A stretch of DNA of 52,193 nt from a virus (IMGVR_UViG_3300027754_000129:1-52193); one strand, 5' to 3'. Positions 28,129 to 30,860 are shown, counted from the stretch's first letter. Translations and numbers: made by a program. The notes: generated from the letters alone by a model not told the origin.

Positions 28129-29136
28129 ATGAAAACAAAATTAACAAAAAAAGAGGAACAATTAACAGATGTTGTTAGAGAAGAATGGCTTAATTTAGCA
28201 TTCAATGAAAACACTAAAGGTATTAATACTAAATTGTATGAAACAGGTATTGAATGGCTTTATAAAAGATTTCTAAACCTACCAAAGCCTGAAATTGTTT
28301 ATTGTGATGGATTAATTGAAGCTGTTATTAAAATAACATTGGTAAAAGATTTCAATAAAGAAATTAGTGATTATGACCCTAAAATGATTGAGGATTATAA
28401 TAACAATACCTTACCAAAAGATTTTATGACTAAGTTCAAAGAGAACTATAATCTTAAATCAACTTATTGTGGTTGGTCCAATTTTGGTTGGGTTTCTTTT
28501 TATGATTATTTTACAAGGATAAAAGTTATCAATCATGATGATTTTAATAATTACATCCAAATTATTAAATCAAATGTTTTTGAATCTTTTGAATTTGAAA
28601 ATGTTGTATTTGCTGTTCAACCACCATCTGTAATAAATATAAATGATAGTGGTCAGTTACATAATACATCGGGATGTGCATTATCTTTTAACGATGGTTC
28701 TGAATTTTATTTTATCAATGGTCGTGAAATTGATAAGAAATTAGTTAATGGTGATTTTACCAAAGAAGATTTCTTAAACGAAACCAATGAGGATACAAGA
28801 GGCGCTATGTTTGAAATTATCGAATCTAGAGATGAAGGTTCTATGATGGAATTTTTAGAAGCTTATGAGTATGGTAGAGATGAGATAACCCATACAAATG
28901 GAGATGTTGAAACTCTTATCTTATATAGAACAAAAGAAACTTTTCCTGAATTAAAAGATATTAATGGTGATAGTGATGTTCCATTATGTTGGTTAAAGTT
29001 AGTATGTCCATCTACAGGTCAGAATTATTTGATATCAACAGATTCAACATTTAAAACACCTATTGAGGCTGCTAAATATCATAGACCAGAAGAAGTTCCT
29101 TTTGATTTGGCTTATTCTTGGTTCAGTAGAAATTAA
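28129..29136 (+). CDS. DUF6745-like protein lacking the usual internal tetrapeptide repeat tract
   Basis: KLT..E......REEWL, GWVSFYDYF, GQLHN..G.AL.F.DG..YF.NG, VCPSTG.NY. Confidence 0.7.
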   Translation: MKTKLTKKEEQLTDVVREEWLNLAFNENTKGINTKLYETGIEWLYKRFLNLPKPEIVYCDGLIEAVIKITLVKDFNKEISDYDPKMIEDYNNNTLPKDFMTKFKENYNLKSTYCGWSNFGWVSFYDYFTRIKVINHDDFNNYIQIIKSNVFESFEFENVVFAVQPPSVININDSGQLHNTSGCALSFNDGSEFYFINGREIDKKLVNGDFTKEDFLNETNEDTRGAMFEIIESRDEGSMMEFLEAYEYGRDEITHTNGDVETLILYRTKETFPELKDINGDSDVPLCWLKLVCPSTGQNYLISTDSTFKTPIEAAKYHRPEEVPFDLAYSWFSRN

Positions 29137-29149
29137 TATAAGATAAATT

Positions 29150-29347
29150 ATGAAACTAGGTAAACCATTGGTATATGAATTTTTACCATATATTCGTGCT
29201 GATATACAATGTGAAATTGGTGATTTAATAAATGATAATGTTGATATCTTAATAAATGCTACTGCAAGCTCAGAAATATATGATTGTTTTACCGAATTTA
29301 TTGTGGTTGAACTACTATTACCAATAGAATATTCTATATTTGAATAA
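29150..29347 (+). CDS. Diverged LGKP mini-protein (4-residue hydrophobic periodicity)
   Basis: MKLGKPL start; a hydrophobic residue every 4th position through the body. Confidence 0.65.
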   Translation: MKLGKPLVYEFLPYIRADIQCEIGDLINDNVDILINATASSEIYDCFTEFIVVELLLPIEYSIFE

Positions 29348-29420
29348 TAATTTGCTTTTTATATTAATAATTAATATATTTGTATTATAAATAAATTTAA
29401 TAATTAAATAAAAAAAAACC

Positions 29421-29807
29421 ATGGAAAAGTTAATTTTTACAAATGAGTTTAATGCTCACCAAGGCGACTGCCAATTACATTCAATCTCCAAATTACCAAC
29501 AACAGCAAAAAAAGTTCAAAAAACTTTCTTCGCAAAATCAGAAAAATCTGGTCATGCTCATGCTCTATGTGGTGACTATGAATTATTTGAAGATGAAAAA
29601 GGTTCAAGATTTATTGTGGTAGGTCATGATGGTGCAACACTTAATCATACAGGTTATAAAAATCTTACAAAAGAATATTGGGATACCAATAAAGTATTGC
29701 CTGTGGCTGACCATAAACCAACCCTTTTAAAAATGGGTATCTATCATGTGGGTATTCAAAGAAGAATAAATCCTTACAAAGCTGTTTGGGAGCGTGTACG
29801 TGACTAA
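29421..29807 (+). CDS. HQGD...GHxH His-rich protein, of the type seen next to DUF6745 genes
   Basis: HQGDCQL, SGHAH, LNH...DHKP..L..G.Y....QR; promoter TTTG 29351 / TATATTTG 29375. Confidence 0.7.
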   Translation: MEKLIFTNEFNAHQGDCQLHSISKLPTTAKKVQKTFFAKSEKSGHAHALCGDYELFEDEKGSRFIVVGHDGATLNHTGYKNLTKEYWDTNKVLPVADHKPTLLKMGIYHVGIQRRINPYKAVWERVRD

Positions 29808-29837
29808 TTCAATAAATAATAAATAATAAATAATATT

Positions 29838-30026
29838 ATGATTCTAGGTAAACCAGTAAGTGATTCAGTAAGTGATTCAATATGGAATTCAGTAAATATT
29901 TCAGTAGATAACTTAGTATGGAATTCAGTAAGTATCTCAATATGGAATTCAGTAAATGATTCAGTAAATAATTCAGTATGTGATTCAGTATGTAATTCAG
30001 TAGGTAATTCAATAGAAGATAAATAA
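29838..30026 (+). CDS. LGKP-(xxSV)n mini-protein 1
   Basis: MILGKPVSDSVSDSIWNSV...EDK. Confidence 0.75.
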   Translation: MILGKPVSDSVSDSIWNSVNISVDNLVWNSVSISIWNSVNDSVNNSVCDSVCNSVGNSIEDK

Positions 30027-30027
30027 T

Positions 30028-30237
30028 ATGATAGGTAAACCAATAAACATCTCAGTACATGACTCAGTAAGGAATTCAGTGGATAACTTAGTATGGAATT
30101 CAGTAAGTGATTCAGTAGAGAACTTAGTAAGTACCTCAGTATGGAACTCAGTATGGGGCTCAGTATGGAAATTAGTAAAAGCTCCAATATATGACTTTGT
30201 AAGTAACTCAGTAAAGCAATCATTAACTAATAAATAA
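30028..30237 (+). CDS. LGKP-(xxSV)n mini-protein 2
   Basis: MIGKPINISVHDSVRNSV...TNK. Confidence 0.75.
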   Translation: MIGKPINISVHDSVRNSVDNLVWNSVSDSVENLVSTSVWNSVWGSVWKLVKAPIYDFVSNSVKQSLTNK

Positions 30238-30241
30238 TATT

Positions 30242-30442
30242 ATGACACTAGGTAAACCAGTAAGTGATTCATTACATAACTTAACATATAACTCAGTATG
30301 GTTCTCAGTAGATAAATCAGTAAGGGGTTCAGTAAATAATTCACTCTGCAATTCAGTGGAGAATTTAATGTGGGATTCAATAGATAATACAGTATGGTTT
30401 CCAGTAAGAAATTTAATAGGTATATCAATATATGATAAATAA
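30242..30442 (+). CDS. LGKP-(xxSV)n mini-protein 3
   Basis: MTLGKPVSDSL...YDK. Confidence 0.75.
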   Translation: MTLGKPVSDSLHNLTYNSVWFSVDKSVRGSVNNSLCNSVENLMWDSIDNTVWFPVRNLIGISIYDK

Positions 30443-30632
30443 TATCACTCTAGGTAAACCAGTAAATATTTCAGTATATAACTCAGTATATGATTCAGTA
30501 CATAATTCAGTAAGTATTTCAATAAGTGATTCAATAAATAATTCAATAATTGATTCAATAAATAATTCAGTATTCAATACAGTAAATACTTCAGTATGGA
30601 ATTTAGTAAGTGGTTCAATAAATAAGAAATAA
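30432..30632 (+). CDS. LGKP-(xxSV)n mini-protein 4
   Basis: MINNITLGKPVNISV...NKK; the junction ATG is lost and an upstream ATG is used. Confidence 0.7.
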   Translation: MINNITLGKPVNISVYNSVYDSVHNSVSISISDSINNSIIDSINNSVFNTVNTSVWNLVSGSINKK

Positions 30633-30640
30633 ATAATATT

Positions 30641-30841
30641 ATGATTCTAGGTAAAATAATATTCAAACAAATAGATAAATCAATATCTGATTCAACATAT
30701 AAATTAGTACATGACTCAGTAAGTAATTCAATATGGGATTCAGTAAGTGTATCAATAAGTAACCCACTATGGAACTCAGTAAGTCTATCAATAAGTAACT
30801 CAGTAGGACTATACACATATAAATCAATATATAATAAATAA
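30641..30841 (+). CDS. LGKP-(xxSV)n mini-protein 5
   Basis: MILGKIIFKQIDKSISDS...YNK. Confidence 0.7.
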   Translation: MILGKIIFKQIDKSISDSTYKLVHDSVSNSIWDSVSVSISNPLWNSVSLSISNSVGLYTYKSIYNK

Positions 30842-30860
30842 TATGAAATAATAAACGAAG

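Follow-up and report, generated by a model that had tools for sequence, protein, structure and literature searches.

The described system closest to the locus considered here is gp54 of phage Tweety. This gp54 has unique N-terminal and C-terminal parts around a run of tetrapeptides encoded by 12-bp units; there are 48 AA[GWQ][SY] units in Tweety gp54, 26 in Che8 gp57 and 15 in PMC gp51 (PMC2884959, PMC9262239). According to the same material, changes in the number of repeats lead to escape from the Phrann gp29/gp30 prophage defence (PMC9262239, PMC2884959), and the model put forward for gp54 makes the juxtaposition of its two end domains depend on how many repeats there are (PMC9262239). The variation is described there as lying mainly at the first and second codon positions and the gene as an early-region gene beside regulators (PMC2884959, PMC9262239), and variable region 2 of bbp36 is cited as reminiscent of gp54 (PMC2884959). 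In this work we analysed a locus with a DUF6745-like gene and an array of tetrapeptide-repeat mini-genes in a stretch of viral DNA, IMGVR_UViG_3300027754_000129, called the window below, which takes in the full length of an IMG/VR virus record (52,193 bases, with an estimated completeness of 15%). It has 27.5% G+C and nearly all of its long open reading frames (ORFs) on the + strand. Its source is a freshwater jumbo-phage fragment, and the public runs with the stretch are labelled freshwater or lake-water metagenomes.

Our reading is that this locus represents a split ("trans") version of an accessory module widespread in phages, and that the repeat element of the module would be autonomous and would offer a variable recognition or decoy surface; we give this reading a probability of about 45%. 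The module is composed of a DUF6745-like protein, a His-rich beta protein of 128 amino acids (aa) and a fast-evolving tetrapeptide-repeat element. In the "cis" form, which is that of most relatives, the repeats are a tract inside the DUF6745-like protein. In the trans form, that of this phage and of several other lineages, the tract is absent from that protein and encoded as tandem, mostly translationally coupled mini-genes, each of them beginning at the tract's own N-terminal boundary (M-x-L-G-K). The repeat element would be a module in its own right and not a mere spacer between two domains.

The repeat tract inside the gene and beside it

The features of the locus are collected in Table 1. 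All the ORFs of the original prediction are present, that is, the two larger genes, a diverged sixth member, five tandem units and a stub, and the 28 identical junction bases reported for units 1 and 5 are exact (sequence AATAAATAATATTATGATTCTAGGTAAA). The M-x-LGKP start attributed to every unit is found in units 1 and 3; it is not kept in unit 2, in unit 5, where the P is lost, or in unit 4, in which the canonical ATG is changed to ATC at 30444 and the frame is open only from the ATG upstream. With these corrections the anatomy of the locus is established.

Table 1. Coordinates of the locus in the window and of related features in other loci.
Feature	Position	Strand	Remarks
Tract-less DUF6745-like protein, 335 aa	28129..29136	+	58-aa non-repeat linker (about residues 61-118) at the tract position of relatives
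Diverged mini-gene, 65 aa	29150..29347	+	MKLGKP and a weak period-4 hydrophobic pattern kept
His-rich "HQGD" partner, 128 aa, all-beta	29421..29807	+	AHQGD at residues 12-16
Mini-gene 1, 62 aa	29838..30026	+	MILGKP, then 13 xxS[VI] units
Mini-gene 2, 69 aa	30028..30237	+	MIGKP, then repeats; L gone through a 6-bp junction deletion
Mini-gene 3, 66 aa	30242..30442	+	MTLGKP, then repeats
Mini-gene 4, 66 aa	30432..30632	+	MINNITLGKP; other frame, 11-nt overlap with the end of mini-gene 3
Mini-gene 5, 66 aa	30641..30841	+	MILGKI, then repeats; junction equal to that of unit 1 over 28 bases
Stub junction ATG AAA TAA	30843..30851	+	closes the array
97-mini-ORF array of the 368-kb relative	L095:2157-19501 and L096:1-3884 (record G001, bases 12656-33884)		about 6% of the genome
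78-80-aa gene copies	L006:6032-6268, L007:7175-7411, L077:7701-7943, L078:7196-7432

A script anchored on the conserved motifs that flank the tract position could classify 90 of the 110 homologues of the window protein obtained at E <= 0.001. A period-4 tract of 6-44 units was present in 47 of the 90, and a fixed non-repeat linker of 48-61 aa in the other 43, including the window protein, whose longest period-4 run is 2-3. The statement of the original prediction that DUF6745 proteins often have an internal VWDSV/VRDQV-type tract, which this copy lacks, was therefore correct. Among the 144 best new representatives, 52 had the tract and 92 did not. The tract lies after the helical N-terminal part of the protein and before its C-terminal domain, and its units are of the type [WRG][DA]SV or its QV, NV and SQL equivalents. 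The length over all searches ranged from 5 to more than 50 units (up to 52-56), and near-identical cis proteins may differ in unit number alone, as P0046 (329 aa, 8 units) and P0072 (473 aa, 44 units) do.

The relation between tract and mini-genes was studied in 91 loci: 80 from an alignment-based scan of viral contigs (the scan with the single sequence gave no match), ten from species-representative genomes, eight of them Bacteroidota, and the window. Among the carriers of a cis form are a locus in a Chitinophaga genome (L083) and temperate-type phages such as L013 and L021. A cis tract was scored where the DUF6745-like ORF itself contained a period-4 run of 5 or more, and a separate repeat mini-ORF was scored as an ORF of up to 135 aa with a run of at least 6, on the same strand and outside the gene. 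None of the 53 cis-tract loci had separate repeat mini-ORFs, while 23 of the 38 tract-less loci did (Fisher's test on loci, p = 7e-12, the loci being mutually related). The mutual exclusion of the two forms is thus established, and the idea that separate genes supply the tract was supported in these loci.

Both forms also have a common boundary, which is equally established: in each trans lineage, the mini-proteins start where the tract of the cis relatives starts. The cis sequence "...ELLKTGANVGDNV" of locus L037 corresponds to the trans starts "MKTGANVRANV" and "MRTGDNVRDNV" of L009, and "KSIKDKLGASVRDSV" of P0046 to "MILGKSIKDKVRGSV" of L005 (MILGKSIKDKV..SV). The repeat type agrees with that of the nearest cis relatives, as seen for SQL (L047-66 versus L045) and for NQV/DQV (L077 versus L073/L076). 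No fewer than four lineages, differing in repeat type, gained or kept mini-gene arrays, and the split arrangement recurs in other phages.

Considering the position of the tract between two domains, it could be thought of as a spacer that sets the distance between the N-terminal and C-terminal domains, the mini-genes being leftover excised copies that contribute nothing. The unit number is indeed free among near-identical cis proteins, the model of gp54 invokes the juxtaposition of the end domains (PMC9262239), and the closest relative of the window has one mini-gene only. However, intact tract-less proteins are common, as the counts of 43 in 90 and 92 in 144 indicate, hence such a spacer is dispensable; the presumed leftovers of a 368-kb relative keep their starts, their stops and a length of 48-84 codons in 97 of 104 cases, with diversification at the protein level; and the recurrence of arrays with different repeat types in at least four lineages would be left aside. 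The mini-genes are not fragments of a broken gene either, because the DUF6745-like gene of the window is intact and is confidently modelled as one chain. We regard a mere spacer as very unlikely.

Reading frame and arrays of the mini-genes

Periods of 12, 24, 36 and 60 bp were detected within every unit by Tandem Repeats Finder. The mini-genes of the array contain 71 repeat units in register, GKP[VI] being itself the first unit, with the pattern x1 (S, W, N, G, Y and others), x2 (N, D, K and others), S in 51 of 71 and V, I or L in all 71. The third positions of the S and V codons are near-invariant, with A in 69 and 68 of the 71 units, and the most variable codon position is the first position of the x1 codon. 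ORF starts of the form M-x(1-5)-[LI]GK occur in the window at this locus only, the one exception being an ATG within an unrelated gene, at 12443, and the mini-gene pattern exceeds chance. Long shadow ORFs run over the repeats on the minus strand, for example one of 139 aa at 29804-30223; however, it is only in the + frame that every unit opens with a start codon and a conserved N-terminus and closes with a stop codon, and this frame agrees with the way in which the tract is read in the homologues. The repeat types SV, NV, QV and QL are written with different codons in different lineages, and the comparison of sequences argues for a constraint on the mini-genes that sits at the protein level.

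The open frames might also be incidental, the array being non-coding or selfish repeat DNA in which a satellite-like 200-bp unit expanded around a stop-free frame. The tandem units with their near-identical junctions (28 bases in units 1 and 5) have that appearance, the other frames and the opposite strand are partly open over the repeats, and third positions of S and V codons as uniform as these are expected in a recent expansion. Nevertheless, the same peptide pattern is found elsewhere with different codons, the non-repetitive members of the arrays retain the length of the ORF as well as an M-x-L-G start whose codons vary synonymously, and the repeat has its homologue in a tract that is translated as part of a protein; no Rfam family was matched within 27000-32500. 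Taking this into account, selfish DNA is an explanation to which we attach hardly any weight. A scan for sigma-70 promoters gave 21 matches versus 29.5 expected from shuffles, that is, below expectation.

The size of the array varies from 1 to 97 mini-genes among the relatives, in line with the diversification by unit duplication that had been proposed. The pattern ATG-AWN-YTA-GG was counted 66 times on the forward strand of a complete 368.5-kb relative, which carries locus L003 (3 times for the reversed-pattern control), 37 times on one strand of the 69-kb fragment with L005 (control 0) and only 7 times in the 282-kb relative with L002. In the 368-kb relative, a region of 21 kb with 104 motif starts lies directly behind the DUF6745-like and 128-aa genes. 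These starts yield 97 ORFs, each 48-84 codons long, which fill 79% of the region. Neighbouring mini-ORFs overlap in 80 of 96 pairs; 4 nucleotides (nt) are shared in 46 pairs, 14 nt in 12 pairs and 10 nt in 11 pairs. The other ATGs of the same region open a median of 15 codons, and the shuffled sequence gave 8; the maintenance of the mini-ORFs is established by these figures.

The mini-proteins of the 368-kb relative are non-repetitive and have in common only M-x-[LI]-G-(K/N/E/R), and the L005 contig has at least 38 intact (xxSV)n mini-genes running to its end. Non-repetitive M-x-L-G mini-genes, similar to the diverged one between the two conserved genes of the window, are found in the arrays of both L002 and L003. 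The original prediction overlooked that this start also heads non-repetitive mini-proteins in relatives, so LGK is not specific to the repeats. A search for a degenerate form of the start pattern over viral contigs found 3 loci, one being the L005 contig already known and the other two GC-rich chance matches without the DUF6745 or 128-aa gene. In L009, M-[KR]-T-G mini-genes lie on both sides of the pair of conserved genes (4794-5507; 6888-7076, 7837-7989 and 9172-9703), xxNV and non-repetitive ones being mixed. A 562-aa ORF with, by eye, two tandem cytosine-methyltransferase-like halves is located a few kb downstream of the module of L002 (L002:10673-12361).

The two conserved proteins and their surroundings

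The DUF6745-like protein of the window matched the Pfam model PF20530 at residues 154-230 with 23.5 bits (E 3.9e-5), below the 27-bit gathering cut-off. The model spans only part of the C-terminal domain, and relatives are also near the cut-off (P0022 with 28.2 bits, P0072 with 26.8 bits). Proteins P0002-P0008, for which PF20530 is precomputed, are 70-76% identical to the query along its entire length, with E from 1e-159 to 1e-171, and by sequence the window protein is a clear homologue of PF20530-bearing proteins. The nearest clusters of the ESM Atlas are 81-92% PF20530 and mostly Uroviricota; in one cyanobacterial cluster DUF6745 is fused to leucine-rich repeats. Of 1.84 billion cluster representatives, the family profile matched 10,322 with E <= 0.001, and 758 of these reached E <= 1e-30. 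No longer fused forms of 588-2000 aa were found, which is weak evidence, and blastn and tblastn against 50,697 annotated phage records gave no match. The AlphaFold2 (AF2) model of the window protein had a mean predicted local distance difference test score (pLDDT) of 89.6 and a predicted template modelling score (pTM) of 0.79. No solved fold was matched by this model, the best Foldseek hit having an E of 0.42 and the best VIA hit, on the C-terminal beta part, a Z of 4.9.

Of 81 viral loci, 54 have a homologue of the 128-aa gene (E <= 4.5e-14) adjoining the DUF6745-like gene, and the number rises to 58 when the limit is E <= 0.01; both cis and trans lineages are among them. This linkage is established, and the idea of a three-part system was correct in this respect. 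G15, D16, P26, A38, H45, H47, G51, H76, D97 and H98 are invariant in 31 sequences, from which we infer a putative metal site. Its AF2 model is all-beta (pLDDT 88.3) and matched no solved fold; the best values were an E of 0.33 with Foldseek and a Z of 4.0 with VIA, for cereblon/yippee-type domains, and the Z values of both proteins are below the range in which the tool is meaningful. A search of solved structures by sequence with the two conserved proteins gave no convincing match (best E 0.16 and 0.026). In PADLOC-DB the 128-aa protein had no match, and the matches otherwise obtained were only marginal (E of 1e-3 to 1e-4, 14-19 bits) and fell on models of unrelated restriction enzymes.

Some loci depart from the usual order. 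In L009 the 128-aa gene lies upstream of the DUF6745-like gene. After the long-type DUF6745-like genes (381-396 aa), a gene of 78-80 aa (...GVNVAP.STSGHF...YNPF..YEKS.D) occupies the usual place of the 128-aa gene (Table 1); it has only its last 27 residues in common with the 128-aa family (E 0.0047, probability 7%) and is a lead only. The possibility that the N-terminus of the 128-aa protein had been taken up into the long-type DUF6745 proteins (383-385 aa, ending ...SRQGEKFS...) was rejected (hhalign E 0.34).

The residues conserved in both proteins lead to a rival of different nature, a maturation of the kind known for ribosomally synthesized and post-translationally modified peptides (RiPPs). 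The mini-proteins would be the precursors, the DUF6745-like and His-rich proteins the modifying enzymes, and the cis form a fusion of enzyme and substrate. Between 5 and 97 small ORFs with only M-x-L-G-(K) in common, and otherwise hypervariable, lie beside the two conserved genes; H45, H47, H76, D97 and H98 of the 128-aa protein are invariant, as the residues of a metal site would be; and H178, D189 and C293-P-S-T are near-invariant in the DUF6745-like family. Clusters in which one enzyme serves many precursors exist, those of the prochlorosins being an example. On the other hand, no known RiPP maturase or leader family was matched in Pfam for nine ORFs (E <= 1) or in NCBIfam for six proteins, although the enzymes might be of a family not yet described; a leader of 4-5 residues would be far shorter than the known RiPP leaders, and it would be unusual for a substrate to lie in the middle of its own enzyme. 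We consider this maturation unlikely.

In small temperate-type phages, the pair of conserved genes sits between regulators (excisionase/MerR-like, anti-repressor) and recombination/replication genes (exonuclease, single-stranded DNA-binding protein (SSB), NinG, DnaD-like loader, DnaB-like helicase), a position that, from the annotated neighbours, is that of an early accessory module and not a structural one. This bears on the proposal that the small proteins are packaged and ejected, M-x-L-G-K being a capsid targeting or processing signal. Small proteins loaded into the capsid are known from the internal proteins of T4; big families of small proteins with a short common N-terminus are present in the jumbo phages of L003 and the window, and an early action in the host would be explained. 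But the module of the small phages is among early regulatory, recombination and replication genes, and in the cis form the boundary motif is internal to a protein of 330-540 aa, where it cannot serve as an N-terminal signal. Packaging is for these reasons highly improbable.

With regard to expression, two metatranscriptomic libraries of two studies have contigs identical to the window at 30166-30316 and 30098-30322, which bridge mini-genes 2 and 3. An RNA-library contig of a relative spans 29130-29272, and contigs of relatives cover parts of other genes. The contigs of the RNA runs X11, X15 and X16 leave some of the stretch bare, gaps to which we attach no meaning. In one RNA-library contig (run X11), 30513 is joined back to 30435 through 19 other letters, and this may be the variant arrangement of repeat units of a relative, or a mis-assembly. 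No copy-number variation of the array was seen, a second DNA run having an identical contig of 1369 nt (29859-31227) that covers units 1-5.

Three other features of the window surround the module. A 125-aa ORF with a hydrophobic N-terminus and a Tyr/Asn-rich low-complexity tail (...YRYNYQYLNYYRYYNPYGYDMGYNRVYY...) is located at 27469-27846. Further upstream, at 24574-26571, there is a 665-aa ORF that matched PHROG 13933, "nuclease" (E 3.2e-149), and that we take, by eye on the sequence, to be an exoribonuclease of the RNase R/II type. Downstream, ARAGORN located a tRNA-Leu(aag) at 31379-31464; with gathering thresholds, Rfam gave no match between 27000 and 32500, tRNA included.

Weight of the reading and comparison with known systems

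In the split module that we favour, the two conserved proteins would direct the repeat surface, at an early stage of infection, against a host target that varies and that is most plausibly a defence system, a role suggested because of the precedent of gp54. Arrays would express many variants at once, instead of one tract being tuned by slippage. An autonomous role of the repeats is favoured because the juxtaposition model of gp54 cannot explain free-standing mini-proteins. By analogy, a variable host-interaction or counter-defence module is the most likely function, peptide maturation being its main rival. A more specific proposal is that the repeats are the free-standing specificity module of a two-protein phage machine, that phages switch between a single slippage-tuned tract and an expressed library of mini-proteins sharing M-x-L-G as a docking or capping motif, and that the purpose is probably counter-defence or host takeover; this is tentative and, taken as a whole, rather doubtful.

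Several observations weigh against the reading of a split module. The association of tract loss with mini-genes is not significant after relatedness is considered. In favour of the reading, at least five cis/trans changes are required on a tree that was built from the last 220 columns of the profile, at the C-terminal end, with 67 distinct rows representing 88 of the 91 loci. Among six well-supported independent contrasts, the mini-genes went opposite to the cis tract in 2-4 and in the same direction never, giving a sign-test p of 0.125-0.5, which is non-significant because independent contrasts are few. The claim that the tract is supplied by separate genes was sustained by the anatomy, the exclusivity, the shared boundary and the maintenance of the ORFs, not by a significant phylogenetic test. 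Moreover, the clades of the window and of L004-8 have a homologous N-terminal half and linker and differing C-terminal domains, and mosaicism of this kind may inflate the number of switches counted on a tree of the C-terminal domain. Fifteen tract-less loci have no repeat mini-ORF by the definition used. In six of them the gene is truncated; a diverged MKLGK mini-gene is present in L002, L007 and L008; the contigs of L061 and L062 measure 4 kb; and the repeats of L048 and L063-65 are weaker. The single mini-gene of L002, the closest relative of the window (77% identity), is non-repetitive, and a large array is consequently not required.

Other points of this kind concern the mini-genes and the conserved proteins themselves. 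The RNA-library contigs are no proof of transcription, since carry-over of DNA is possible and they show neither strand nor level. Read in the other two frames, the start motif YTAGGTAAA contains TAG and TAA, a point that the original prediction also overlooked, and many upstream ORFs terminate within the motif; its conservation may in part be that of a stop/restart punctuation and not of protein. The L and G codons of the motif, however, vary synonymously (in L003, TTA 13, CTA 3, CTC 1; GGT 12, GGA 4, GGG 1), which argues for a constraint at the protein level. Neither conserved protein has a Pfam, NCBIfam, PHROG or PADLOC assignment beyond DUF6745, or a match among solved folds. Finally, judged from the sequences, the likeness to gp54 is architectural only, and gp54 is the nearest analogue and not a homologue.

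If the more specific proposal is true, the repertoire would be a strategy undescribed for phage-host conflict, with tens to about 100 mini-proteins and up to about 6% of a 368-kb genome devoted to them. An array of as many as 97 overlapping genes, with about 58 codons each, would also be an extreme expansion of a small-gene family in a phage. The arrays would be a ready natural set of variants with which the recognition of the module can be probed, in a DUF6745 family that is large (10,322 representatives), mostly viral and wholly uncharacterised.

In literature searches no paper naming DUF6745 and no description of the split arrangement was found; looking for an equivalent led only to the Tweety work. 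The comparison of gp54 with the 76-sequence family alignment by hhalign gave an E of 0.62 over 10 aligned columns, that is, no homology of the flanking parts; gp54 has no Pfam family, and the 128-aa His-rich partner was not found by Pfam among the neighbours of gp54. Two further systems share part of the design. Prochlorosin-type RiPP clusters also line up numerous small genes in tandem beside conserved genes, the products of the small genes being conserved at the N-terminus and hypervariable elsewhere; they differ in that the conserved part of the window module has 4-5 residues only and that its cis form is embedded in a larger protein. Variable region 2 of bbp36 in Bordetella phage BMP-1 is described as a short repeat whose copy number varies (9-20 copies) in a phage gene of unknown role (PMC2884959). 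It differs in its period of 24 bp.

The agreement with gp54 goes further. The unit of gp54 has two invariant and two variable positions with a W/G alternation, and the number of units differs among close relatives (PMC2884959, PMC9262239); it also differs among the cis relatives of the window (8 in P0046, 44 in P0072). The window units, with near-invariant third positions of the S and V codons and a variable first position of x1, resemble those of gp54 as described there (PMC2884959). The repeats themselves differ, AA[GWQ][SY] in gp54 and xxSV in the window. The architecture of gp54, unique parts around a tract, is that of the cis relatives and not that of the tract-less 335-aa protein of the window, and a split form with separate mini-genes is not described for gp54 in the text available. 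The alternation between cis and trans forms is in this sense a natural experiment, which argues for the tract as a module of its own and not a linker, and it bears on how gp54, the only studied tetrapeptide-repeat protein, is thought about.

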